Under the pieces are notes generated by a model. That model was given only the letters and a program-made list of their open reading frames with translations. It did no database searches and had not been told where the DNA came from. A DNA stretch of 64,000 bases from Clostridia bacterium (lineage in GTDB: Bacteria; Bacillota; Clostridia; Oscillospirales; SIG627), in contig JAFSGN010000009.1 of NCBI GenBank assembly GCA_017440805.1, positions 4,302 through 68,301 of the forward strand. The letters are read 5' to 3'. The first letter of the stretch is position 1. Each line of letters starts with the position of its first letter. Of the stretch, positions 52,038 through 62,811 are shown piece by piece. Both the position numbers and the translations under genes were made by a program.

Positions 52038-52739
52038 TCACTCAATAATATTTCCGTCTGTGGAAATTGTAACCACTCTCCAGGGAATAAATTTTCCGCT
52101 TGTCATAAGAGCATTTTTTACACTAAATTCTATTCCTCCGCAACAGGGTACTTCCATTCGTACTACCGTTACACTTTTTATATTGTTGTTTGCAATTATG
52201 GCAGACAGTTTTTCCGTATAGTCGCCCTCATCAAGTTTTGGACAGCCGATAAGTGTTATATGGTTTCTTATAAATTCGTTATGAAAGTTTCCGTATGCAT
52301 ATGCTGTACAGTCTGCGGCTACCAGTAAATTTGCTCCGTCAAAATACGGTGCATTTACCGGTACAAGTTTTATCTGTACCGGCCACTGAGACAATCTGCT
52401 GATATTTTCGGTTGCAGACGGAATATTATCGGTACGGCATTCTCTGTGAATGGTTTTTGAGTGAGTTCCCGGACAACCGCAGGGAAGCGGTGTCTCCGAT
52501 TTTTGTTCCTTGGCTTTCTTCACTGCGTTTTCGTTATATACAGGGGCTTCCCTTTCTTCAAAGGTAATTGCTCCCGTAGGGCAGGCAGGCAGACAATCAC
52601 CCAGACCATCACAGTAATCCTCGCGTGTGAGTTTTGCTTTTCCGTTTATCATTTCAATTGCACCCTCATGACAGGCAGCGGCACACAAACCGCATCCATT
52701 GCATTTTTCTCCATCAATTTTTATTATTTTTCTTATCAT
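52038..52739 (-). CDS. 4Fe-4S dicluster domain protein with conserved Cys-rich C-terminal domain
   Basis: CNGCGLCAAAC and CDGLGDCLPACP ferredoxin motifs. The C-terminal part carries AADCTAYAY, IGCPKLD and VPCCGG. Confidence 0.75.
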   Translation of the reverse strand: MIRKIIKIDGEKCNGCGLCAAACHEGAIEMINGKAKLTREDYCDGLGDCLPACPTGAITFEEREAPVYNENAVKKAKEQKSETPLPCGCPGTHSKTIHRECRTDNIPSATENISRLSQWPVQIKLVPVNAPYFDGANLLVAADCTAYAYGNFHNEFIRNHITLIGCPKLDEGDYTEKLSAIIANNNIKSVTVVRMEVPCCGGIEFSVKNALMTSGKFIPWRVVTISTDGNIIE

Positions 52740-52752
52740 GTGTAATACCTCC

Positions 52753-52781
52753 TTGACTTTTCGGTTATATTATACTATAAT
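52753..52781 (+). promoter_or_regulatory. Consensus sigma-A promoter of the Crp/Fnr regulator gene
   Basis: TTGACT-17 nt-TATAAT. The palindrome GTTGT-TTTT-ACAAC at 52797-52810 lies in the leader. Confidence 0.5.
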
Positions 52782-52823
52782 AATTAAAACAAATCTGTTG
52801 TTTTTACAACGAAAGGCGGAAAA

Positions 52824-53516
52824 ATGAAAAATTTTATTCCGGTTCTGAAGAGAACACAGTTATTTTCAGGTGTAGGTACAGAAGAAACCGAATCTATGCT
52901 TTCCTGTCTTAATGCAAGACTCTGCGTATATCAAAAAGGCGAATATGTCATACGCCAGGGGGAGCATCTGAATGAGATTATTGTGTTGCTTGAAGGGAAT
53001 CTTCACATTCAGAATGACGATTACTGGGGAAACCGAAGCATATTAAGTCATATTACCCCGGGAGAAATGTATGGCGAATCTTATGTTTCACCGGAAAGCG
53101 GAACGGTTATCAACGATGTTGTTGCAACAGAAAAAAGCACCGTAATCTTTTTTAATGTCACAAGAATCCTTACAACCTGCTCTTCAGCCTGCAGGTTTCA
53201 TCAGAAAGTAATGCAGAACATGTTCTTCGCAATCTCAGAAAAAAACAGAAATCTTGTGCAGAAACTCGGACATATGTCCAAGCGTTCCACCCGTGAAAAA
53301 CTCGTTTCATATCTGTCGGAACAAGCAGGAAGACAAAACAACTCTCATTTCACCATTCCTTTCAACCGCCAGCAACTTGCGGATTTTCTGTCGGTTGACA
53401 GAAGTGCCATGTCTAACGAACTGTGCAAAATGCGGGATGAGGGACTTATAGAATTCAATAAAAACAGTTTTATTCTATTAGATAATCTGCGGAACAGTAC
53501 ACCTTCCACCGTATAA
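52824..53516 (+). CDS. Crp/Fnr family transcriptional regulator
   Basis: N-terminal cNMP-binding-like barrel and C-terminal HTH (RQQLADFLSVDRSAMSNEL). Confidence 0.88.
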   Translation: MKNFIPVLKRTQLFSGVGTEETESMLSCLNARLCVYQKGEYVIRQGEHLNEIIVLLEGNLHIQNDDYWGNRSILSHITPGEMYGESYVSPESGTVINDVVATEKSTVIFFNVTRILTTCSSACRFHQKVMQNMFFAISEKNRNLVQKLGHMSKRSTREKLVSYLSEQAGRQNNSHFTIPFNRQQLADFLSVDRSAMSNELCKMRDEGLIEFNKNSFILLDNLRNSTPSTV

Positions 53517-53550: not shown

Positions 53551-53579
53551 TTGACAAATCCGATTTTATGTGTTAGAAT
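53551..53579 (+). promoter_or_regulatory. Sigma-A promoter of T-box unit 1
   Basis: TTGACA-17 nt-TGtTAGAAT. Confidence 0.6.
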
Positions 53580-53590
53580 ATCCCCCGTAA

Positions 53591-53862
53591 ACGCAGTGAT
53601 GCGGAATAGTATGCAAAGTATTTTTGCTTTGAGAGAGATGTCGGGCGGTGCGAGACATTGGCAGAATCTTGCAGAACTCACCGTTGAGCGGCTGTCGTGA
53701 ACTTACAGTAGGGACAGACGGAAACTCCCGTAACAGAGTTAAGATGTGTTAGCATCTAAAGGGCATCCTTACAGGATGAAAAAGAGTGGTACCGCGGAAA
53801 CATTATCTGAAGTTTAACGTTTTCGTCTCTTTGAGTCAACAAAGAGATGAGAGCGTTTTTTT
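53591..53862 (+). promoter_or_regulatory. T-box leader (riboswitch) 1, specifier CUC (Leu), transcription-attenuation type
   Basis: K-turn GTGATGCGG/CCGTTGAGCG. Specifier loop with AGTA on the 5' side and GAA-CTC-A on the 3' side (CTC at 53677-53679). AGAGAG bulge, GGTGCGA distal loop, T-box GAGTGGTACCGCGG (53784-53797). Terminator stem CGTCTCTTTG/CAAAGAGATG followed by T7. Confidence 0.85.
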
Positions 53863-53910
53863 GTTGACAAAACCTTTATATTATATTTTTTATGAAAGGA
53901 AATTTCAAAA

Positions 53911-55299
53911 ATGAGAACAATCTATGTTACAGACATTACTCTTAAGAAACTTTCAGAGGACCGTGAAATATCACTGCTTTTCCGCGAAAAATCCGCCATC
54001 GCTAATTGTGCCGATGCACTCGGTGTAAATGCTATAGAGTTGCCTGCTGTAAAAAATCTTCGTGAGGATACCATTATTTATAAAACCATTGCACAAAATG
54101 TTCAGCATGCAACCCTTGCCGTTCCGGTGGGATTCAACAAGCAGGATGTTGCGTCTGTATGGGAATGCATCAAAGACGCAAAACAACCTCGCCTTCAGGT
54201 TGAACTTCCCGTTTCAACAATTCAGATGGAATATACATATCATGTAAAGCAGTCGGTTATGCTCGAAAAAATTACCGAACTCATAAAAGAAGCAAAAACA
54301 TATTGCAATGATGTGGAATTTTCAGCACTGGATTCCACACGCGCCGATGATGACTTTCTTATCTCAGCCGCAAAAGAAGCAGAGTCCGCCGGTGCAAGTA
54401 TGATAACTCTTTGCGATAATGCCGGAGTTTCGACTCCCCGTCAAATCGAAGAGATGGTTGAAAAAATCAAACAAGCGGTAAGCATTCCAGTATATATTCA
54501 GGTTTCTGACCGTATAAATATGGGTGTTGCATCATCCTTTGCAGCGATTTCAAAAGGTGCAGACGGCATTAAATGTGCCATTGCCGGCAAAGACATTCTT
54601 TTAACCGGTGAATTTTCCGACGCAATGAGTGTCTGCGGCACTCAGATTGATGCTAAAATTGAACTTAACACCACAAAAATTCATGCAAGTATTGACGAAA
54701 TGCTGTCAAACATAAATCACAAAAACTATGAAAACGAAGTATCCGTAAGCGACAGAAAAAAGATTTTGCTTGATTCCGATTCTTCCATCTCCCAGGTTGC
54801 TCACGCAGCAGAGGTTTTGGGATACCAACTTTCTGATTCGGATATGGGAAATGTATATAAAGCACTGACACAGGTATGGGAAAAGAAAGGTGCAGTAGGT
54901 TCAAAAGAATTTGAAGCGTTGATAGCAAGTTCTGCCATGCAGGCTCCTTCGACATACCATTTTGAAACATACACAACAACAAGTAGCAATGCGACAAGTT
55001 CAATGTCACAGGTTACACTTAAATGCAATGACGAAATAATATGCGGTGTCAGCAGCGGAGACGGTCCGATAGACTCTGCTTTCCGTGCAATCGAACAGTG
55101 CATAGGACATCACTATGAACTTGATGATTTTCAGGTTCAGTCCGTAACAGAAGGTAAAGAAGCCCTGGGTTCTGCGTTGGTAAGACTTCGCAACAACGGA
55201 AAACTTTATTCAGGTAACGGAACATCAACCGATATTGTCGCTGCAAGCATAAGAGCATATATAAATGCACTTAACAAAATTGTTTTTGAGGAGGCATAA
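53911..55299 (+). CDS. 2-isopropylmalate-synthase-like protein with degenerate active site but intact C-terminal LeuA regulatory/dimerisation domain
   Basis: HMGL-type barrel similarity, but DTTLRDGEQ is replaced by DITLKKLSE and HxHND by QVSDR. The C-terminus GDGPIDSAFRAIEQ..VTEGKEALGSALVRLRNNGKLYSGNGTSTDIVAASIRAYINALNK is classic LeuA_dimer. Confidence 0.75.
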   Translation: MRTIYVTDITLKKLSEDREISLLFREKSAIANCADALGVNAIELPAVKNLREDTIIYKTIAQNVQHATLAVPVGFNKQDVASVWECIKDAKQPRLQVELPVSTIQMEYTYHVKQSVMLEKITELIKEAKTYCNDVEFSALDSTRADDDFLISAAKEAESAGASMITLCDNAGVSTPRQIEEMVEKIKQAVSIPVYIQVSDRINMGVASSFAAISKGADGIKCAIAGKDILLTGEFSDAMSVCGTQIDAKIELNTTKIHASIDEMLSNINHKNYENEVSVSDRKKILLDSDSSISQVAHAAEVLGYQLSDSDMGNVYKALTQVWEKKGAVGSKEFEALIASSAMQAPSTYHFETYTTTSSNATSSMSQVTLKCNDEIICGVSSGDGPIDSAFRAIEQCIGHHYELDDFQVQSVTEGKEALGSALVRLRNNGKLYSGNGTSTDIVAASIRAYINALNKIVFEEA

Positions 55300-55300
55300 A

Positions 55301-57760
55301 ATGAAGATAGTATTTTCAACCAAGGATGTAAGTCGTGCGACTTTCCTTGATACCTGCCGTTATGCCTTTGACTACGGATTTGAAGGTTTTGAAATATATG
55401 ATGCAATCAAAGAAAGAAGTTTTCATCACGACAGCATATTAAGGCGTGACCGCACTGCTGATGCCAAAAGAAAACTTGTAAACAGAAGTCTTTCGGTTTC
55501 GGCACTCCGTATGCCCGACGGTATTGATGACCAAAATACAACCGCGGATTCGGTGGTTAAATATGTAGATATGGCTTCGGCATCAGGGATTTCCAATGTC
55601 ATTGTACGCGTTAACAATAAAATTTCCTTTGGTGTCCTGGATGAAAAACTCTGCCGTGCCATAAAAAAGGCAGAAAATACGGATGTCAATATCCTGTTTG
55701 AAACTGTGGGGGCATTGGCAAACACAGAAAATGTAATTGATATAATAAACCACTTTTCTTCTGCTGTCATCGGTGCTTCCTGGAATGTCAGAGGTACATA
55801 TTTTGATGCAGGGGAAACATCCGAGGCAACTATCAAAACTTTGGGTGCTTACATCAAGTATGTTCGTCTGGGAGATATGAAAGACGGAAAAACAGTCCTG
55901 ATTGGCGAGGGTGAACTTGATGTGGCAAAACTTATCGGTGCTCTTTCGTCGCTCAACTATGAAGGATATATTTGTGCGGCATGGAATGAGGAAATTAATG
56001 ATGCAGATATAGTTTTAACTCACTTTGCAAATTATATTTCACAACTGAACCGTGAAAAGAAATCTTTTGATAAAGCCTACTACAACAGAGATAAGACCGG
56101 AACATTTGTATGGAAAAAATACGATGTTATTGATGCCACTTTTTCCGATGTGCTTGACACTATGGTTGAAAATTACCCGGACCAGTATGCATTCAAGTAT
56201 CCCACTCTGGATTACACAAGAACTTATGAACAGTTCAGACGGGATGTGGATGATTGTGCGGCAGCCCTTATATCTCTCGGCGTAAAAGCAGGTGACCATG
56301 TTGCAGTCTGGGCAACAAATGTACCCGAATGGTTCATCACCTTCTGGGCAACAACAAAAATCGGCGCAGTTCTGGTTACTGTAAACACTGCGTATAAAAT
56401 TCATGAAATTGAATATCTTCTGAAACAGTCTGATACACATACTCTGGTTATGATTGAGTTTTGTAAAGACATCAATTACAAGGAAATTATTGAGGAACTC
56501 TGTCCGGAACTCAAAACTCTTACTCCCGGTCAACCCCTCTATTCTAAAAATCTTCCGTTCCTCAGAAATGTTATAACAGCAGGATTTTCTATGGACGGAT
56601 GTCTTACCTGGGAACAGATGCTTTCCCGTTCCTATCTTGTTCCCCGTGAAGAAGTAAGAAGACGCGCGTCCCTTGTTAAGCCTGACGATGTATGCAACAT
56701 GCAGTATACATCAGGTACAACAGGTTTCCCAAAAGGTGTTATGCTTACACACCGTAATATCGTTAACAACGGTAAAACTATCGGTGACAGAATGGATTTG
56801 TCAACAGCCGACCGTATGATGATTCAGGTGCCTATGTTCCATTGCTTCGGCATGGTGCTTTCAATGACATCAATGATGACTCACGGCGGAACACTTTGTC
56901 CCATTCCGTATTTCTCACCCAAGTCATCTCTTGCCTGTGTAAATGATGAGAAAATCACCTGCTTTAACGGTGTACCTACAATGTTTATTGCAATGTTTGC
57001 CCATCCTGATTTTGCAAAAACAGACTTTTCATATATGCGTACAGGTATAATGGCGGGTGCAAACTGCCCGGCAGATTTAATGCGCCGTGCATCTGTGGAA
57101 ATGAATATGCGTGAAATTATTTCGGTGTACGGTCAGACCGAGGCTTCCCCCGGATGTACCATGGGTGAAGTTAACGAAGACCTTGACCACAGAGTAGAAA
57201 CTGTCGGAAGTGCATTTCCCGGCGTTGAATGTAAGATTATTGACCCTGAAACAGGCAAAGAACTTCCCGACGGAGAGAGCGGTGAATTTGTTGCCCGCGG
57301 TTTCAATATTATGAAAGGCTATTACAAAATGCCGGAAGCAACCGCTCAGGCGATAGATGAAGACGGATGGCTCCATTCCGGCGACATTTGTATGAGAACA
57401 CCTGACGGATACTACAAGGTTACAGGTCGTCTTAAAGATATGATTATCCGCGGAGGAGAAAACTTATATCCAAGAGAGATTGAAGAGTTCTATCTTACAA
57501 ATCCGAAGGTACGCGATGTTCAGGTTGTGGGCGTACCCGACGAAAGATACGGTGAGGAATGTTGTGCCTGGGTTATTCTTCACAAGGGAGAAACTGCCGA
57601 CGAAAATGAAATGAAAGAATTCGGCAATGCTTCCATTGCAAGACATAAAGTGCCAAAATACTTCTTGTTTGTTGATAGCTTCCCAATGAACGCTGCAGGT
57701 AAAATTCTCAAATACAAAATGCGGGAGGAATCAGCCGAAAAATTAGGCCTTAAAAAATAA
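55301..57760 (+). CDS. Fusion protein: xylose-isomerase-like TIM-barrel (sugar-phosphate isomerase/epimerase family) domain plus FadD-type AMP-forming acyl-CoA ligase
   Basis: The N-terminal about 255 aa is a TIM-barrel family (GFEGFEI.., ..YEGYICAAWNEE). The C-terminal about 555 aa carries MQYTSGTTGFPKGVMLTH (A3), YGQTE, GWLHSGD and GKILKYKMRE. The ATG at 55301 follows GAGGAGG, 1 nt after the preceding stop. Confidence 0.85.
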   Translation: MKIVFSTKDVSRATFLDTCRYAFDYGFEGFEIYDAIKERSFHHDSILRRDRTADAKRKLVNRSLSVSALRMPDGIDDQNTTADSVVKYVDMASASGISNVIVRVNNKISFGVLDEKLCRAIKKAENTDVNILFETVGALANTENVIDIINHFSSAVIGASWNVRGTYFDAGETSEATIKTLGAYIKYVRLGDMKDGKTVLIGEGELDVAKLIGALSSLNYEGYICAAWNEEINDADIVLTHFANYISQLNREKKSFDKAYYNRDKTGTFVWKKYDVIDATFSDVLDTMVENYPDQYAFKYPTLDYTRTYEQFRRDVDDCAAALISLGVKAGDHVAVWATNVPEWFITFWATTKIGAVLVTVNTAYKIHEIEYLLKQSDTHTLVMIEFCKDINYKEIIEELCPELKTLTPGQPLYSKNLPFLRNVITAGFSMDGCLTWEQMLSRSYLVPREEVRRRASLVKPDDVCNMQYTSGTTGFPKGVMLTHRNIVNNGKTIGDRMDLSTADRMMIQVPMFHCFGMVLSMTSMMTHGGTLCPIPYFSPKSSLACVNDEKITCFNGVPTMFIAMFAHPDFAKTDFSYMRTGIMAGANCPADLMRRASVEMNMREIISVYGQTEASPGCTMGEVNEDLDHRVETVGSAFPGVECKIIDPETGKELPDGESGEFVARGFNIMKGYYKMPEATAQAIDEDGWLHSGDICMRTPDGYYKVTGRLKDMIIRGGENLYPREIEEFYLTNPKVRDVQVVGVPDERYGEECCAWVILHKGETADENEMKEFGNASIARHKVPKYFLFVDSFPMNAAGKILKYKMREESAEKLGLKK

Positions 57761-57788: not shown

Positions 57789-58589
57789 ATGAAAAATTAC
57801 AAAATTATAGATGCTCACTGCCATATTTATCCGGATAAAATTGCTCAGAAAGCATCGGAAAGTACCGGAAATTTTTACAGCATTCAGATGAGTCTTGACG
57901 GCAAAATATCCACACTTCTGGAACATGGAAAAACTGCCGGTATCTCCCATTTCATAGTACAGTCTGTTGCAACTACTCCAAAGCAGGTTTCCAGTATAAA
58001 CAACTTTATTGCCTCTTCGGTCAATGAAAGCAACGGTGAATTTACAGGCTTGGGAACTCTTCATCCCGACAGCGAAAACTTGAAATCAGATGTTGATGAA
58101 ATATTGCGTCTCGGATTGAAAGGCGTGAAACTTCATCCCGATATACAGCAGTTCAAAATAGACGATTACCGTATGCTGAAAATATACGAACTTTGCGAAG
58201 AAAAACTCCCCATTCTTATACATACGGGAGACCACCGTTATGACCTTTCAAACCCAAACAGAATTATGCCCATACTCGACATATATAAAAATCTGACGGT
58301 CATAGGAGCACATTTCGGCGGTTGGTCCATCTGGGAAGAAGCAACAGAAAAACTTTGTAAGTACCGCAATTTCTATGTGGACTGTTCATCTTCGCTTTAT
58401 GCCATAACGCCCGACAAAGCAAAGGAACTTATTATGGCATACGGAACAAACAGGGTTCTTTTCGGAACAGATTATCCCATGTGGGAACCAAAAGAGGAAA
58501 TTGAAAAATTTATGCAGATTGACCTTACAGATGATGAGCGTCGGGACATACTGTATAACAATGCCGCAAAGTTGTTTGGCATACAATAA
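57789..58589 (+). CDS. Amidohydrolase-2 (PF04909-type metal-dependent TIM-barrel hydrolase) family protein
   Basis: IIDAHCHIYP (HxH) at the N-terminus, GVKLHP, and FGTDYPMW (Asp) near the C-terminus. Confidence 0.75.
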   Translation: MKNYKIIDAHCHIYPDKIAQKASESTGNFYSIQMSLDGKISTLLEHGKTAGISHFIVQSVATTPKQVSSINNFIASSVNESNGEFTGLGTLHPDSENLKSDVDEILRLGLKGVKLHPDIQQFKIDDYRMLKIYELCEEKLPILIHTGDHRYDLSNPNRIMPILDIYKNLTVIGAHFGGWSIWEEATEKLCKYRNFYVDCSSSLYAITPDKAKELIMAYGTNRVLFGTDYPMWEPKEEIEKFMQIDLTDDERRDILYNNAAKLFGIQ

Positions 58590-58633: not shown

Positions 58634-58662
58634 TTGACAAATTGAAATTTGCGGAGTATAAT
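58634..58662 (+). promoter_or_regulatory. Consensus sigma-A promoter of T-box unit 2
   Basis: TTGACA-17 nt-TATAAT. Confidence 0.6.
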
Positions 58663-58691
58663 ACATTCCAAGGTTTGAATATCACAAAAAA

Positions 58692-58956
58692 CGACTGTGA
58701 CGAGGACGGTCGGATTGTGAGGCCTTGAGAGAGTTGCCGGGTGGTGCGAGGCAATGGCGGAACTTTCCAATGACTTATCACCTCTGAGTCGAAGGACCGA
58801 AAAGTTTTACTTAGTAGACTCCTTCCGTAACGCTGCGTAAAAGCAAAGAACTTGTTTGAGTTCAGTAAGTGACGGAATACTTGTATTCCGTAATTTGAGT
58901 GGTACCGCGGGTTGTTATAACTCGTCTCAAAGTTATCTTTGGGGCGAGTTTTTTGT
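58692..58956 (+). promoter_or_regulatory. T-box leader (riboswitch) 2, specifier position reads AUC (Ile; tentative), transcription-attenuation type
   Basis: Base stem CGACT/AGTCG. K-turn GTGACGAGG/CCTCTGAG. ATC-A directly 5' of the CCTC helix (58777-58780). AGAGAG bulge, GGTGCGA distal loop, T-box GAGTGGTACCGCGG (58897-58910). Terminator CTCGTCTCAAAG/CTTTGGGGCGAG followed by T6. Confidence 0.8.
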
Positions 58957-59013
58957 TTTATTCGGATTTGTAAACAAATATCACATTTGTCAGATTTGAA
59001 AGGAGACAAAACA

Positions 59014-61314
59014 ATGGATTACAGTTTAAAAGAAGTGGCAGGAAGAATCAAGGACCTGCGTGAAGCAAAAGGTTTTACGCCGGACCAACTTGCAAAACTT
59101 ACAGGTGTATCTGTTGAAGATTACAAAGTTTTAGAGAGAGGCGAAACAGACTTCACCTTCACATTCATTTACAAATGTGCAAAGGCTTGTGGCGTTGAAG
59201 TTGTTGATTTGCTCGAAGGAACAAGCAGTACCCTCACCTCTTTTACCGTTACAAGAAAAGGCGAAGGACTTAAAATTTTAAAGAAGCACGGGGTGGAATA
59301 CGACAATCTGGCTCCCAAGTTCAAAGAAAAACTTGCCGAACCGTTCCTTGTTAAATTCCCCTATCTTGAAGAAGAACAAAATCAGCCGATAAAATTGAGT
59401 TCACACAATGGTCAGGAATTTGATATCATTGTCAAAGGCTCTCTCAAAGTTCAGGTCGGAAACCATATAGATGTTCTCAATGAAGGTGATTCTATTTTCT
59501 ACAACAGTATCATTCCCCATGGTATGGTTGCTGTTTCAGAGGGCGGTTGTGAATTTCACGCAATCGTTTTAAATCCGCAAGACGGACTTGTAAGCGAAGA
59601 ATACCCCGATGCACCTATTTCATCTGAAAAGCATCTGGTAAAAGAGGTTAAATCCGGAACTGTTGCCGATGATTTCATTGAATCATCCTATGACGAAAAC
59701 GGTGTATTCAACGGCATAACCTTCAAAAATGCGGATAAATTCAATTTTGCATTTGACTGTGTGGATGCAATCGCACAAAAAAATCCCGACAAACTTGCAA
59801 TGATGTGGGTTGCAAACGATAAAACAGACAGAAGATTTACTTTCAGTGATTTGAAAAAGTATTCAAACAAAACCGCAAACTATTTTGAATCTCTGGGAAT
59901 CAAAAAAGGCGATACCGTAATGCTGGTATTAAAACGCCACTATCAGTTCTGGTTCTGCATGCTTGCACTTCATAAAATCGGTGCTATCGCAATCCCCGCG
60001 ACAAACCAACTTGTAGAACACGATTTTGATTACAGATATAAAGCGGCAAGAGTAAAAGCAGTTGTCTGCACAAATGACGGCGAGGTTTCATGTGAAGCAG
60101 AAAAAGCCGCGGCAAACTATCCCGGAATGGTAAAAGTTCTGGTTGGCGGTGAAAAAGAGGGATGGCACGATTTCAATGTTGAAATGGAACGCTTCAGCAC
60201 ACACTTTGACAGAAACGAAAACTCCCCCTGCGGAAATGAGCCTATGCTTATGCTCTTTACCTCCGGTACAACAGGATACCCCAGAATTGCAACACATTCA
60301 TATAAATACGCATTGGGACATTATCCCACAGCAAAGCATTGGCACAATGTAAATCCCGACGGACTTCATTTCACAATCTCCGATACAGGTTGGGGTAAGG
60401 CTCTCTGGGGCAAACTCTACGGTCAATGGTTATGTGAAGCAGCCGTATTTACTTATGACTTTGATAGATTCCGCTCGGAAGACATCCTGCCCATGTTTGC
60501 AAAATATCATATTACAACTTTCTGTGCTCCCCCTACAATGTACCGTTTCTTCATCAAGGAAGATTTGTCAAAGTATGACCTTTCATCCATCGAATATGCT
60601 ACAACAGCAGGCGAAGCACTGAACCCTGAAGTATTCAATCAGTTCAAGAAAGCAACAGGACTTACAATCATGGAAGGGTTCGGTCAGACAGAAACAACAC
60701 TTTCCATCGCAAACTTTGTAGGCTCAACTCCCAAAATCGGTTCAATGGGCAGACCCAGTCCTTTATATGATGTAGTTGTCCTTGACCCTGACGGAAACGA
60801 ATGTAAAACAGGCGACACAGGTGAAATCTGTATCCGCACAAAAGACGGTTCTCCCTGCGGTCTCTTTATCGGATATTACCTTGACGAGGAAAAGACCAAA
60901 GAGGTCTGGTATGACGGATACTATCATACAGGCGACCAGGCAACCATGGACGAAGACGGATATCTCTGGTATGTGGGCCGTATCGATGATGTAATCAAAT
61001 CCTCCGGCTACCGCATCGGTCCTTTTGAAATAGAAAGTGTTATCATGGAACTTCCTTATGTTCTTGAATGTGCAATTACTCCGGTTCCCGATGAGGTCCG
61101 CGGACAGATTGTAAAAGCGACAATCGTACTTGTTAAAGGAACAACCGGCACAGACGAGTTAAAAAAAGAAATCCAGGAATATGTAAAAACACATACTGCT
61201 CCTTATAAGTACCCGAGAATTGTCGAGTTTGTAGATGAACTTCCAAAGACAATCAGCGGTAAAATCAGGCGTGTGGAAATCCGTAAGAACGACCAGAAAA
61301 AAATGAGCAAATAA
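59014..61314 (+). CDS. Fusion protein: XRE-type HTH, cupin domain and ACSM/MbcS-type AMP-forming (medium/short-chain) acyl-CoA synthetase
   Basis: Residues 1-65 are an HTH_3 domain (LREAKGFTPDQLAKLTGVSVEDYKVLERGE). Residues about 100-195 are a cupin (GQEFDIIVKGSLKV..GDSIFYNS.IPHG). The remainder is an adenylate-forming enzyme (LFTSGTTGYPRIA, GFGQTET, YHTGD, SGKIRR). The ATG at 59014 follows AAAGGAGA. Confidence 0.85.
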   Translation: MDYSLKEVAGRIKDLREAKGFTPDQLAKLTGVSVEDYKVLERGETDFTFTFIYKCAKACGVEVVDLLEGTSSTLTSFTVTRKGEGLKILKKHGVEYDNLAPKFKEKLAEPFLVKFPYLEEEQNQPIKLSSHNGQEFDIIVKGSLKVQVGNHIDVLNEGDSIFYNSIIPHGMVAVSEGGCEFHAIVLNPQDGLVSEEYPDAPISSEKHLVKEVKSGTVADDFIESSYDENGVFNGITFKNADKFNFAFDCVDAIAQKNPDKLAMMWVANDKTDRRFTFSDLKKYSNKTANYFESLGIKKGDTVMLVLKRHYQFWFCMLALHKIGAIAIPATNQLVEHDFDYRYKAARVKAVVCTNDGEVSCEAEKAAANYPGMVKVLVGGEKEGWHDFNVEMERFSTHFDRNENSPCGNEPMLMLFTSGTTGYPRIATHSYKYALGHYPTAKHWHNVNPDGLHFTISDTGWGKALWGKLYGQWLCEAAVFTYDFDRFRSEDILPMFAKYHITTFCAPPTMYRFFIKEDLSKYDLSSIEYATTAGEALNPEVFNQFKKATGLTIMEGFGQTETTLSIANFVGSTPKIGSMGRPSPLYDVVVLDPDGNECKTGDTGEICIRTKDGSPCGLFIGYYLDEEKTKEVWYDGYYHTGDQATMDEDGYLWYVGRIDDVIKSSGYRIGPFEIESVIMELPYVLECAITPVPDEVRGQIVKATIVLVKGTTGTDELKKEIQEYVKTHTAPYKYPRIVEFVDELPKTISGKIRRVEIRKNDQKKMSK

Positions 61315-61374: not shown

Positions 61375-62811
61375 TTGAAAAAAACATATGTAACTTCCAT
61401 GCCAAACCATATAGGTGCCTTTTTGAAAGCAAGTAAATGCTTTTCGGAATTGGGGGTAAATATCACCCGTGTAAGTTATAACAAGGCAGTTGATTCCCAC
61501 ACCTTGTTTATTGACGCCGAAGGAACAGAGGAACAATTAAAAAAGGCAGATAACCAACTTGAGAAAATCGGATATCTGCAAAGCAATACGAATAAGACCA
61601 GTATCGTTTTGATTGAGTTCTGTCTTGAAGATGTACCGGGAAGTGTTACAAATGTACTTGAACTTATAAATAAATTCAACTTCAATATATCCTATATCAG
61701 TTCTCAGGAAAACGGTACAGATTATCAATATTTCAAAATGGGTTTATATGTTGATGATTTTGATAAAATTTCCGAGTTTTTAAAAGAAGTGGAGAAACTT
61801 TGTAAAGTTCGTGTGATAGACTACAACAGTTCCGAAAAGGTGTATGATAACAGTATTTTTTACAACACCTATGTTTTAGGTCTGTCGCAGACAATGGGAC
61901 TTTCGGAAAAAATAAGCCGTGAACTTTTGGTACATGTCAACCTTGCAATGCAGACACTTGACGAACAAGGACTGTCTCCGTACCGCACTTTTGACAGTAT
62001 AAGTAAGTTTGCCGAACTTTTAGGCGACTCAAAGGGGAAAAATTTTAATCCCCGCATAAGCACTCACAGAATAACTGACAACACCGAAATAATTCTTATA
62101 GAGCCTCCCTGCGGAAGCAATACCATAATTATAAAAAGCAATGAAAAGGTTCTGTTTGTAGACAGCGGATATGCCTGTTATGCGGATGAGATGCTGGAAG
62201 TATTCAAAAAATTATTTCCCGGGTTTGACAAAATGGAAAAGACAATTCTTGTAACTCACGCAGATGTGGACCACTGCGGACTTTTACCGTTGTTCGATAA
62301 GATAATTGCAAGTAAAAAAACTGCGGACTGTCTTGTTAATGAACACCAGGGCAAAAACGGTTACAGAGAATCAAATCCTCTCCATAAGCCATATATTAAT
62401 ATCTGTAAAATTTTAACATCATATCAGGCATTGGAGCCATGTAAAATAACTGCTATGTGGAATGATGTTCCCGACCTGACAGAACCTCTGACACAAATCG
62501 GATTTTTCAACTTTGAAGAACTGCACTTTGAGGTATACGAAGGAAAGGGCGGTCATCTGCCCGGCGAGATTGTGCTGATAGATTATTCAAAACATATTGC
62601 CATCACAGGCGACATTTATATCAACACACACGGCCTGACTGAAAAACAGGCAAAATACAACCAGTATGCACCAATCCTTATGACCTCAGTGGACACCGAC
62701 CCGAATTTGTGTTTAGAGGAAAGAAAAGCAATTATGCAAAGACTGGGCGTAGGCACCTGGCAGATATTTGGCGCACACGGATTCAAAAAAGATTATTCGG
62801 TTAATTTATAA
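61375..62811 (+). CDS. Fusion protein: tandem ACT domains plus metallo-beta-lactamase-fold hydrolase
   Basis: Two ACT-like units (NHIGAFLKASKCFSELGVNITRVS and DVPGSVTNVLELINKFNFNISYIS), then an MBL core (VTHADVDHCG as HxHxDH variant, ..ITGDIYI.., GAHG). The TTG start follows AGAGGTGA. Confidence 0.75.
   Translation: MKKTYVTSMPNHIGAFLKASKCFSELGVNITRVSYNKAVDSHTLFIDAEGTEEQLKKADNQLEKIGYLQSNTNKTSIVLIEFCLEDVPGSVTNVLELINKFNFNISYISSQENGTDYQYFKMGLYVDDFDKISEFLKEVEKLCKVRVIDYNSSEKVYDNSIFYNTYVLGLSQTMGLSEKISRELLVHVNLAMQTLDEQGLSPYRTFDSISKFAELLGDSKGKNFNPRISTHRITDNTEIILIEPPCGSNTIIIKSNEKVLFVDSGYACYADEMLEVFKKLFPGFDKMEKTILVTHADVDHCGLLPLFDKIIASKKTADCLVNEHQGKNGYRESNPLHKPYINICKILTSYQALEPCKITAMWNDVPDLTEPLTQIGFFNFEELHFEVYEGKGGHLPGEIVLIDYSKHIAITGDIYINTHGLTEKQAKYNQYAPILMTSVDTDPNLCLEERKAIMQRLGVGTWQIFGAHGFKKDYSVNL

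Follow-up and report, generated by a model that had tools for sequence, protein, structure and literature searches.

A predicted non-catalytic paralogue of 2-isopropylmalate synthase as a possible leucine-sensing partner of an acyl-CoA ligase in a Clostridia bacterium

The enzyme 2-isopropylmalate synthase (LeuA or IPMS, EC 2.3.3.13) is built from a TIM barrel, accessory helices and a regulatory (R) domain in which a beta-beta-beta-alpha unit occurs twice, and Leu T-box control is found in the ilv-leu operons of Firmicutes. Its R domain contains the Leu site and exerts its effect by contacts between the domains of a domain-swapped dimer (PMC9860122). Offshoots of IPMS recruited to another pathway include methylthioalkylmalate synthase (MAM, e.g. 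6e1j) and other derivatives without a regulatory domain; MAM retains catalysis but has dropped that domain. In histidine biosynthesis, HisZ, an inactive histidyl-tRNA synthetase paralogue, serves as the histidine-sensing regulatory subunit of the short-form ATP phosphoribosyltransferase HisG, and experiments have demonstrated that HisZ and HisG form a complex and that this complex binds histidine. Rumen anaerobes reportedly carboxylate branched-chain volatile fatty acids reductively to Leu, Ile and Val (work of Allison, Bryant, Robinson and Peel in the 1960s-70s); this classical body of work consists of labelling and enzymology, without genes, a LeuA-like subunit, T-boxes or ligase fusions. 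Finally, MbcS, the methylbutyryl-CoA synthetase of Staphylococcus aureus, which feeds fatty-acid synthesis, activates 2-methylbutyrate and isobutyrate, the acids corresponding to Ile and Val, and isovalerate only poorly (PMC10026030).

Our study compares these systems with a locus in a window of 64 kb, that is, the whole stretch of contig JAFSGN010000009.1 that was analysed. It carries an open reading frame at 53911-55299 on the forward strand (462 aa), exactly the span given in the initial annotation, whose product we call pLeuA. This protein shares with LeuA the barrel, the accessory helices, the fold of the regulatory domain and control by a Leu T-box, but the metal site (Asp/His/His), substrate Arg, catalytic Glu and both the GIGERAGNA and the HxxGIHQDG motif are missing from it; it is about 45 aa shorter, falls more than 280 bits under the NCBIfam LeuA cut-offs, and always adjoins an acyl-CoA ligase instead of lying beside leuBCD. 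It is thus the mirror image of MAM. The concept resembles that of HisZ, a dead paralogue that recognises the end product and is reused as an allosteric subunit of a committed-step enzyme, although fold and partner are unrelated and, for pLeuA, we infer both the complex and the leucine binding. The substrates, direction and habitat of rumen reductive carboxylation agree with what we propose below, and a ligase, a 2-oxoacid:ferredoxin oxidoreductase (OFOR) and BCAT are the gene set that it requires. Among named proteins, MbcS is most closely related to the ligases that we found behind Ile and Val T-boxes (NCBIfam, 455 bits), but unlike them it has neither an HTH-cupin extension nor a T-box, and the partner ligase of pLeuA belongs to another ANL subfamily (PRK12583-like) and carries an additional TIM domain. 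A full-text literature search returned nothing on the pLeuA family, on a LeuA pseudoenzyme or on a T-box/ligase/OFOR cluster. In the databases, these proteins are named "hypothetical" or "alpha-isopropylmalate synthase regulatory domain-containing".

The protein is divided into three regions:

53911-54600, forward strand: HMGL-like/DRE-TIM barrel (residues 1-230), without metal ligands or catalytic residues
54601-54900, forward strand: shortened accessory/linker region (residues 231-330), with HxxGIHQDG of subdomain I deleted
54901-55299, forward strand: LeuA_dimer regulatory (R) domain (PF08502, 1e-31)

The initial annotation had described a full-length LeuA homologue, and this description is borne out by both profile and structure comparisons. 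PF00682 (HMGL-like) matches residues 18-226 (6e-33), and the match to PF08502 (LeuA_dimer) spans residues 331-457, covering positions 4-130 of the 131 in the HMM. Scores with the NCBIfam LeuA equivalog models do not exceed 248 bits, where cut-offs of 532-748 apply, the best value being 247.8 against 532. The AF2 model is confident (pLDDT 92.8 overall), with most of the barrel at 97-99, two N-terminal blocks at about 90 and residues 275-282 predicted to be disordered. In Foldseek the barrel superposes on 3ewb, 3rmj and 3eeg with an rmsd of 1.7-1.8 Å and a TM(target) of 0.82-0.91; the best matches of pLeuA are LeuA, MAM and HCS structures, with MAM in first place and the Leu-bound 3fig among them.

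Special attention was given to the catalytic residues, for which pLeuA was aligned residue by residue to the structures 3ewb and 3rmj and to canonical LeuAs, and the catalytic columns were counted in 106 family members. The three motif readings of the initial annotation are recovered in these alignments: DTTLRDGEQ reads DITLKKLSE, replacing the Arg by K12 and the Asp by K13; HCHNDLG reads QVSDRIN, with the two His replaced by Q197 and S199; and GIGERAGNA gives way to "AG-KDILL", with four residues deleted. Beyond that earlier reading, the catalytic Glu of S-x-E-D corresponds to L140, NxPDT reads TLCDN, and the accessory-domain motif HxxGIHQDG (the His379 region of Mycobacterium tuberculosis LeuA) is deleted. 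Across the family, no member keeps either His of the HxH pair (0/106), and the metal-ligand Asp of LRDGxQ is kept in only 9 of the 106; the substrate Arg (R80 in M. tuberculosis) persists in 34 and the catalytic Glu (E218) in 25, while the GIGERAGNA loop is deleted in more than 93 and HxxGIHQDG in about 100. In the M. tuberculosis IPMS, R80A, R80K and E218A each abolish activity (PMC10464499). Since the metal site, substrate Arg, catalytic Glu and accessory motif are all lost, pLeuA is predicted to be incapable of the LeuA Claisen condensation, and we classify it, from its sequence, as a predicted non-catalytic paralogue of LeuA. The alternative that the metal ligands have merely been displaced was rejected on the alignments: none of the 106 members has a His at or beside either column, the adjoining columns vary, and two segments, GIGERAGNA and HxxGIHQDG, have been physically removed by deletion. 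Within the family, the sequence varies greatly at the former active-site columns, and this speaks against a new catalytic site in their place.

The regulatory domain presents the opposite picture, as the initial annotation had anticipated when it called this domain well conserved. The match to PF08502 is nearly complete, the GDGPIDA loop and the STDI...AY.NALNK motifs are retained, with the GDGPIDA and STDI loops invariant, and there is little or no variation at G383, G385, P386, D388, A389, F391, S439, T440 and D441. The strongest selective constraint on pLeuA lies on this C-terminal domain: dN/dS is 0.02-0.03 here and about 0.09 (0.08-0.10) in the barrel, being far below 1 in all three regions, and mean pairwise identity within the family is 0.57 in the R domain versus 0.34 in the barrel. 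Identity to the R domain of canonical short-form LeuA is only about 32-34%, and a phmmer search of the PDB with the pLeuA R domain alone matched no R-domain structure of LeuA or CimA. The fairly strong purifying selection on the barrel indicates that it is more than a passive spacer; the loss of the catalytic residues coexists with long-term purifying selection, as in regulatory pseudoenzymes. The family itself comprises more than 100 clusters at 50% identity, with intact open reading frames of 453-480 aa found in 80 genomes. Its habitat is the ruminant gut, where branched-chain volatile fatty acids abound; DNA metagenomes from this source were the only sequencing runs to carry the pLeuA sequence, and no RNA run did.

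The gene is preceded by the following transcription signals:

53551-53579, forward strand: sigma-70-like promoter of the Leu operon (TTGACA-17-TAGAAT, extended -10 TG, 11 of 12 matches)
53587-53833, forward strand: T-box leader of the Leu operon (RF00230, 126.5 bits against a gathering score of 93)
53816-53866, forward strand: intrinsic terminator of the Leu T-box (18-bp stem and T-run), overlapping the antiterminator region

The promoter ends 8 nt upstream of the leader. The specifier codon, read from the CM alignment as "GAA-CUC-A-CCGU", is CUC (Leu) at 53677-53679 and is followed by a purine, and the T-box sequence AGUGGUACCGCG lies at 53785-53796. The CM alignment confirms the CUC specifier both in this leader and in the related locus L085, and CUC was found in all 52 of the resolved leaders of pLeuA relatives, where the flanking helices covary. 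The proposed position of pLeuA as the first gene behind a Leu T-box is supported by the RF00230 match and by the specifier, in the window as well as in its relatives. Downstream, the operon continues with two further genes and is followed by a second transcription unit:

55288-55303, forward strand: pLeuA-ligase junction GAGGAGGcaTAAaATG, with the ligase start placed at 55301 by the gene caller
55301-57760, forward strand: TIM::acyl-CoA ligase fusion (819 aa), the proposed isovalerate-CoA ligase
57789-58589, forward strand: Amidohydro_2/TatD-like metal hydrolase, third gene of the operon, with HxH...H...H...D intact
58634-58950, forward strand: promoter (58634-58662), T-box leader (58688-58932) and terminator (58919-58950) of the second unit
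59014-61314, forward strand: HTH(XRE)-cupin-acyl-CoA synthetase fusion (Pfam), MbcS-like (NCBIfam MbcS model, 455 bits)

The downstream gene had been read as a fusion of a TIM barrel and a ligase, and the Pfam matches (AP_endonuc_2, AMP-binding and AMP-binding_C) agree with this. A xylose-isomerase-like TIM barrel occupies approximately residues 1-255, an assignment that the AF2 model and Foldseek support, and an ANL acyl-CoA synthetase occupies approximately residues 271-819, with 668 bits to the PRK12583-like NCBIfam model and acyl-CoA synthetases as its PDB matches. At the junction, the Shine-Dalgarno sequence of the ligase lies inside the 3' end of pLeuA and is followed by the stop codon, 1 nt and the ligase ATG, an order that indicates translational coupling. 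In the related loci the fusion is found directly 3' of pLeuA in 79 out of 79 cases, at a spacing of -20 to +76 nt (mode +1, usually within about 12 nt), and no natural fusion of pLeuA to the ligase occurs among the top 150 representatives. We had considered that the TIM domain of the ligase might be dead throughout the family, and dropped this idea: only the clade of the window is without the ligands, and a distant clade appears to keep an E-D-H-H-D-E metal site. A profile search with this TIM domain recovered mostly contig-truncated fragments of the same fusion. The Amidohydro_2 gene is found near pLeuA in 33 of the 80 related loci, nearly always directly after the ligase. Given this gene and the fused TIM domain, the operon may run chemistry beyond the needs of a simple pathway.

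In the second unit, the specifier at 58777-58779 is AUC (Ile), and its ligase is proposed to be a 2-methylbutyrate-CoA ligase forming the Ile branch of the same salvage system. MbcS-like ligase paralogues were found behind Ile (AUC) T-boxes in 24 loci and behind Val (GUA) T-boxes in 13, and across the related loci three ligases carry Leu, Ile and Val T-boxes. OFOR (alpha/beta/gamma), BCAT or both are present in 29 of the 80 related loci, and L085 holds a complete cluster of ligase, OFOR and BCAT. In the 64-kb window, where ligases are the only members of this set, we found no OFOR, BCAT, canonical leuA, leuBCD or aconitase-type neighbour. The ligase paralogues with Ile and Val T-boxes, together with OFOR and BCAT in related loci, point to the formation of Leu from isovalerate. 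The catabolic direction, from Leu to isovalerate, was rejected on two grounds: a T-box turns expression on when its tRNA is uncharged, and thioester formation is the direction in which AMP-forming ligases work. The T-boxes, each specific for an amino acid, and the OFOR and BCAT alongside make a role restricted to branched-chain fatty-acid synthesis, as for MbcS, less likely.

The explanation that we prefer, and to which we give an even chance, is that reductive carboxylation of isovalerate yields Leu and that the dead LeuA is a non-catalytic, probably Leu-sensing partner of the ligase. The invariant pairing with the ligase behind a Leu T-box, combined with a retained domain of the Leu-binding type, makes pLeuA most likely the leucine sensor of this ligase. 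Under this explanation, uncharged tRNA-Leu would switch the operon on through the CUC T-box, and pLeuA would be co-produced with the ligase, whose gene starts 1 nt downstream, and would probably form a complex with it. Judging from its context, the ligase most likely activates isovalerate to isovaleryl-CoA, which would be the committed step; isovaleryl-CoA, CO2 and reduced ferredoxin would then yield 2-oxoisocaproate through the OFOR, and transamination by a class IV aminotransferase would give Leu. When Leu is plentiful, a pLeuA dimer would bind it in the regulatory domains and, by a contact that possibly involves the N-terminal TIM domain of the ligase, lower ligase activity. The dead LeuA would in this way bring the LeuA feedback module to a new committed step, and the salvage route would regain the canonical two-tier control by T-box and LeuA feedback inhibition. 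Against this explanation count the limited identity of the R domain to that of canonical LeuA, the lack of pLeuA-ligase fusions among the top 150 representatives, the constraint on the barrel, the absence of OFOR, BCAT and canonical leuA from the window, and a fused TIM domain and a hydrolase that exceed the pathway's needs. The more specific proposition that an R domain exapted on a dead barrel acts as a trans-acting Leu sensor for an ANL-family acyl-CoA synthetase, within a T-box regulon of three branches, is tentative, and we place it somewhat short of an even chance.

It is important to consider that the same pairing would be expected if pLeuA were an obligatory structural or assembly subunit that does not respond to Leu, stabilising or activating the ligase or bridging it to the OFOR so as to channel isovaleryl-CoA, with the "regulatory" domain acting only as a module for dimerisation and partner binding. 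The invariant pairing and the coupling distances fit such a subunit, as do the purifying selection on the barrel and an R domain with an identity of 0.57 within the family against 0.34 to canonical LeuA; the family-specific invariant stretches HYELDDFQ and GKLYSG in this domain suggest a new protein interface, and HMGL-like barrels form complexes with CoA-dependent partners, for example in the DmpG/DmpF-type aldolase-dehydrogenases found among the Foldseek matches. However, the R-domain signature loops GxGPxDA and STDI are invariant, the Leu-specific T-box context makes Leu the economical choice of ligand, and OFOR genes adjoin in only a minority of the loci; we regard this explanation as unlikely, yet deserving of weight. 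Should the R domain sense an effector other than Leu (Ile, Val, 2-oxoisocaproate, isovalerate or an acyl-CoA), its divergence from canonical LeuA would be accommodated, and the LeuA_dimer domain of a citramalate synthase, Leptospira CimA, does bind Ile. This is very improbable in our judgement, as the association with Leu (CUC) T-boxes is strict and another N-terminal module, the HTH-cupin, serves the Ile and Val branches.

Two further explanations concern the barrel and the gene as a whole. The barrel might belong to a neo-functionalised enzyme or ligand carrier that binds 2-oxoisocaproate, isovaleryl-CoA or another intermediate and carries out a metal-independent step, perhaps with the help of the Amidohydro_2 protein and of the xylose-isomerase-like TIM domain fused to the ligase. 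This would account for the low dN/dS of the barrel, for its near-invariant polar residues (D8, T10, S102, E107, D141, R144 and D169) and for the two additional domains in the operon, one of which, in the distant clade, appears to keep its metal site. The conserved positions of the barrel, however, mostly have equivalents in LeuA motifs (DTT, ATS, EDAxR and PDT) without being catalytic residues, the old active-site columns are variable with P100, F24 and K113 as the sole gains, and the proposed pathway requires no additional reaction, which leaves this explanation quite improbable. The erased catalytic motifs could also be those of a decaying leuA pseudogene or an annotation artefact, but the conservation data, the breadth of the family and its dN/dS values refute this, and the confident AF2 model and the conserved operon position behind the T-box add to a probability that we regard as negligible.

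If the proposed exaptation of the R domain is true, pLeuA would be the first LeuA-derived pseudoenzyme, and its partner the first short-chain acyl-CoA ligase under feedback regulation by an amino acid. The ligases would belong to a previously undescribed Leu/Ile/Val T-box regulon of gut and rumen Clostridia, in which branched-chain amino acids are made from isovalerate, 2-methylbutyrate and isobutyrate. It would be a case of exaptation at the level of a domain, where an allosteric module outlives its active site and moves to another committed step towards the same end product. With three T-box ligases, OFOR and BCAT, the pathway becomes testable in gut Clostridia that are abundant but little studied (Christensenellales/Oscillospirales-type MAGs), and metabolic reconstructions that count pLeuA as LeuA would predict a false canonical leucine pathway in them. 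These results bear on the role of branched-chain volatile fatty acids as growth factors of fibre-degrading anaerobes, and they would provide genes and a regulatory logic for a rumen biochemistry that has been genetically undefined for 60 years.

The LeuA-like protein pLeuA belongs by homology to the LeuA/HMGL-like superfamily, yet every catalytic feature that would make it a LeuA, or 2-isopropylmalate synthase (IPMS), has been lost. Its gene and its neighbours are arranged in the window as follows.

Features of the Leu operon and the unit that follows it
53587-53833: first T-box leader (126.5 bits, Rfam)
53911..55299, + strand: pLeuA, 462 aa
55301..57760, + strand: Leu-branch ligase, an 819-aa fusion of a xylose-isomerase-like TIM barrel and an ANL acyl-CoA synthetase
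57789-58589: third gene of the Leu operon, an Amidohydro_2/TatD-like hydrolase with its HxH...H...H...D ligands intact
58634-61314: second unit, an Ile (AUC) T-box and a 766-aa XRE-type HTH-cupin-MbcS-like acyl-CoA synthetase fusion
58688-58932: second T-box leader (95 bits, Rfam)

Pfam assigns residues 18-226 of pLeuA to an HMGL-like barrel (6e-33) and residues 331-457 to the LeuA allosteric/dimerisation, or regulatory, domain (1e-31), and the NCBIfam LeuA equivalog models, whose cut-offs are 532-748 bits, score it no higher than 248. The initial annotation held that the catalytic signature was erased, and residue-level alignments with the crystal-structure sequences 3ewb and 3rmj and with two canonical LeuAs (P0261 and P0264) bear this out: DTTLRDGEQ is replaced by DITLKKLSE, HCHNDLG by QVSDRIN, and GIGERAGNA by AG-KDILL with a four-residue deletion. 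The losses extend to the S-x-E-D strand, whose catalytic Glu (E218 in M. tuberculosis) has become L140 in pLeuA, to NxPDT, which reads TLCDN, and to the accessory-domain motif HxxGIHQDG (His379 region), which is deleted. In M. tuberculosis IPMS, substitution of R80 or E218 alone abolishes activity (PMC10464499). The fold has been preserved: an AlphaFold2 model built with 106 family members as input is confident (pLDDT 92.8, pTM 0.76), its first Foldseek matches in the PDB are LeuA, methylthioalkylmalate synthase (MAM) and homocitrate synthase, its barrel superposes at 1.7-1.8 Å on 3ewb, 3rmj and 3eeg, and it matches M. tuberculosis LeuA over the full length, including the leucine-bound form 3fig. 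We consider it nearly certain that pLeuA is not an IPMS.

An exhaustive HMMER search over 1.84 billion representatives identified more than 100 clusters at 50% identity, with members of 453-480 aa that are 30-48% identical to the query and are named either "hypothetical protein" or [quoted passage not shown]; canonical LeuAs (~505-516 aa) enter the list only at ~198 bits and below.

Fate of LeuA catalytic positions in 106 family members
HxH columns: either His kept in 0
Metal Asp column: kept in 9
Substrate Arg column: kept in 34
Catalytic Glu column: kept in 25
GIGERAGNA: deleted in >93
HxxGIHQDG: deleted in ~100

The former catalytic columns are highly variable (the first His column holds E in 24 members, Q in 15, S in 11, C in 10 and R in 9), which is the pattern of a site released from selection and not that of a remodelled active site. 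A wrecked or decaying leuA would also lose these residues, and this explanation is ruled out by the breadth of the family and by dN/dS values far below 1. Comparison with close relatives, in which dS is near saturation and the values are consequently approximate, gave a dN/dS of 0.08-0.10 for the barrel, 0.13-0.17 for the linker and 0.02-0.03 for the regulatory domain; in the same order, pairs of family members share a mean identity of 0.34, 0.25 and 0.57. The barrel is thus under clear purifying selection and must still have a job, for example as an interface or in ligand binding. The invariant or nearly invariant residues cluster in the regulatory domain, as in the GDGPIDAAF loop (G383, G385, P386, D388, A389, F391) and the S439-T440-D441 loop; the initial annotation likewise noted that this domain is well conserved. 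The leucine site of IPMS sits in this domain (PMC9860122), and selection is therefore centred on the part that hosts it. Identity of the regulatory domain is 0.57 within the family versus 0.34 towards canonical LeuA, and the stretches invariant in this family alone could mean that it contacts a partner or that its ligand has changed.

When one genome was scanned for each GTDB species, pLeuA appeared at 80 loci (41-85% identity). Almost all belong to gut-derived MAGs of Clostridia (ruminants and others), Congzhengia sp. being the closest. A few loci with the pLeuA-ligase pair (L061, L071, L076, L082) come from MAGs labelled Coriobacteriaceae/Eggerthellaceae, Synergistaceae or Salinivirgaceae; here the module may have spread horizontally, or the contigs may be misbinned. 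The Leu-branch ligase is the next gene in 79 of the 79 loci with downstream DNA; relative to the pLeuA stop, its start falls between -20 and +76 nt, most often at +1 nt (25 loci) and with overlap in 12, and in the window its Shine-Dalgarno sequence, GAGGAGG, lies within the final codons of pLeuA. A functional tie between the two proteins is very likely.

Both T-boxes in the window follow a promoter-like site and end in a terminator. Covariance-model alignment places the specifier of the first in the loop GAA-CUC-A (Leu, 53677-53679), as the initial annotation had proposed, and that of the second in CUU-AUC-A (Ile, 58777-58779). In relatives, specifiers were called by a structural heuristic (specifier, purine and 4 bp of helix formed with the strand that follows the K-turn UGA), which was checked for the window and locus L085 against their covariance-model alignments. 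By this heuristic, leaders upstream of pLeuA carry CUC in 52 of 52 resolved cases, with a covarying flanking helix, and those of the HTH-cupin ligases carry AUC (Ile, 24 cases) or GUA (Val, 13 cases). Since a T-box activates its gene in response to uncharged cognate tRNA, the products of these operons must make more Leu, Ile and Val available.

The HTH-cupin-ligase fusion is present in 41 loci, in one or two copies in relatives. The joining of an enzyme to a PuuR-like HTH-cupin module, which may be a sensor or an autoregulator, is unusual in itself. The nearest relative of the Ile/Val ligases is MbcS (NCBIfam, 455 bits), and the Leu-branch ligase is PRK12583-like (668 bits), from another ANL subfamily. 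Purified MbcS activates 2-methylbutyrate and isobutyrate and is poor on isovalerate (PMC10026030), which accounts for the Leu branch taking a ligase of a different subfamily. Recurrent neighbours are 2-oxoacid:ferredoxin oxidoreductase (OFOR) alpha/beta/gamma, a class IV (branched-chain) aminotransferase (BCAT) and a CbiA-like P-loop protein; OFOR and/or BCAT genes occur in 29 of the 80 loci, though many contigs are truncated. L085, reached via a 33%-identical homologue, holds the full cluster in one string: two HTH-cupin ligases, P-loop protein, ferredoxin, OFOR alpha/beta/gamma, BCAT, Leu T-box, pLeuA, Leu-branch ligase and Amidohydro_2. The OFOR genes regularly come after those for the CbiA/MinD-like P-loop protein (~221 aa) and the small 4Fe-4S ferredoxin and before that for the aminotransferase (L085 3377-7699 and 29 other loci). 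OFOR, BCAT and canonical leuA are all absent from the 64 kb of the window.

Other genes of the window also deserve mention. A Crp/Fnr-type regulator (52824-53516, +) lies directly upstream of the Leu operon, beside a divergent poly-ferredoxin-like 4Fe-4S protein (52038-52739, -), and this arrangement (52038-53516) is repeated on other contigs bearing the identical gene. After the Ile-branch ligase, 61375-62811 encodes a protein of 478 aa that joins an ACT domain, of the type that binds amino acids, at its N terminus to a metallo-beta-lactamase fold, in which THADVDH replaces HxHxDH; this protein, which recurs in L045 and no other locus, may be a further accessory factor that senses amino acids. 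The TIM domain of the Leu-branch ligase proves to be a true barrel of the xylose-isomerase-like kind (AF2 pLDDT 90) that matches ketose 3-epimerases, UlaE and AsbF (Foldseek TM 0.7-0.77). Alignment to MJ1311 shows its metal ligands replaced in the window clade (55301-56110; W161-N162, V-R-L-G-D with R189, "CAAW"); a distant clade among loci L050-L083 keeps the E-D-H-H-D-E pattern ("LWD..H", "KHVHxKD", "SLEW"). Any reaction of this domain is not needed by a simple isovalerate-to-leucine pathway, and the Amidohydro_2 protein, found near pLeuA in 33 of the 80 loci and nearly always directly after the ligase, has no obvious place in it.

Rumen bacteria reportedly convert branched-chain acids to acyl-CoAs, then by reductive carboxylation to 2-oxoacids and by transamination to amino acids, according to labelling by Allison, Bryant and others. 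Three ligases under three amino-acid-specific T-boxes beside OFOR and BCAT match this route, and the pathway probably leads from isovalerate to leucine, the substrate being assigned to the ligase from this context.

In our literature search, we found no description of the pLeuA family or of the T-box/ligase/OFOR cluster. The closest functional analogy for the proposed role of pLeuA is HisZ, a dead HisRS paralogue that makes HisG histidine-sensitive. MAM and other IPMS derivatives have kept catalysis and lost the regulatory domain, which makes pLeuA their evolutionary mirror image. Among the LeuAs compared, P0261 has all metal ligands and a Met at the catalytic Glu position (SAMD). P0267 (L086 8001-9536; 511 aa) is a LeuA whose gene adjoins one of the aconitase family (LeuC-like); its motifs are in part degraded (TLCDGEQ, IRAYNDLG where HxHNDLG is expected, and GIGKRAGCA), and it may represent a second, independent erosion of the active site, within a canonical leu operon.

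We rate pLeuA as a putative LeuA-derived pseudoenzyme regulatory subunit. Its loss of catalysis, fold, selection, T-box specificity, gene pairing and neighbourhood come directly from this analysis. Because pLeuA is always made with the ligase from a coupled reading frame, is catalytically dead and retains, under very strong selection, the module by which LeuA binds leucine, its most economical role would be that of a leucine-sensing, non-catalytic subunit of the isovalerate-activating ligase. Of the initial proposal of a leucine-sensing partner for this ligase, the dead barrel, the conserved regulatory domain, the Leu T-box and the ligase pairing stand; leucine binding, the complex and the sign of regulation are what we infer, and a leucine-responsive regulator is at best an even prospect. 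That all three ligases carry an appended putative sensor (pLeuA for Leu; for Ile and Val, a different module of ligand-binding type, XRE HTH and cupin, at the N terminus) fits the sensor idea but is no proof of it. Isovalerate activation by the Leu-branch ligase would be the committed step of leucine salvage, and salvage would thereby come under two tiers of control, T-box induction and end-product inhibition, just as the canonical route does.
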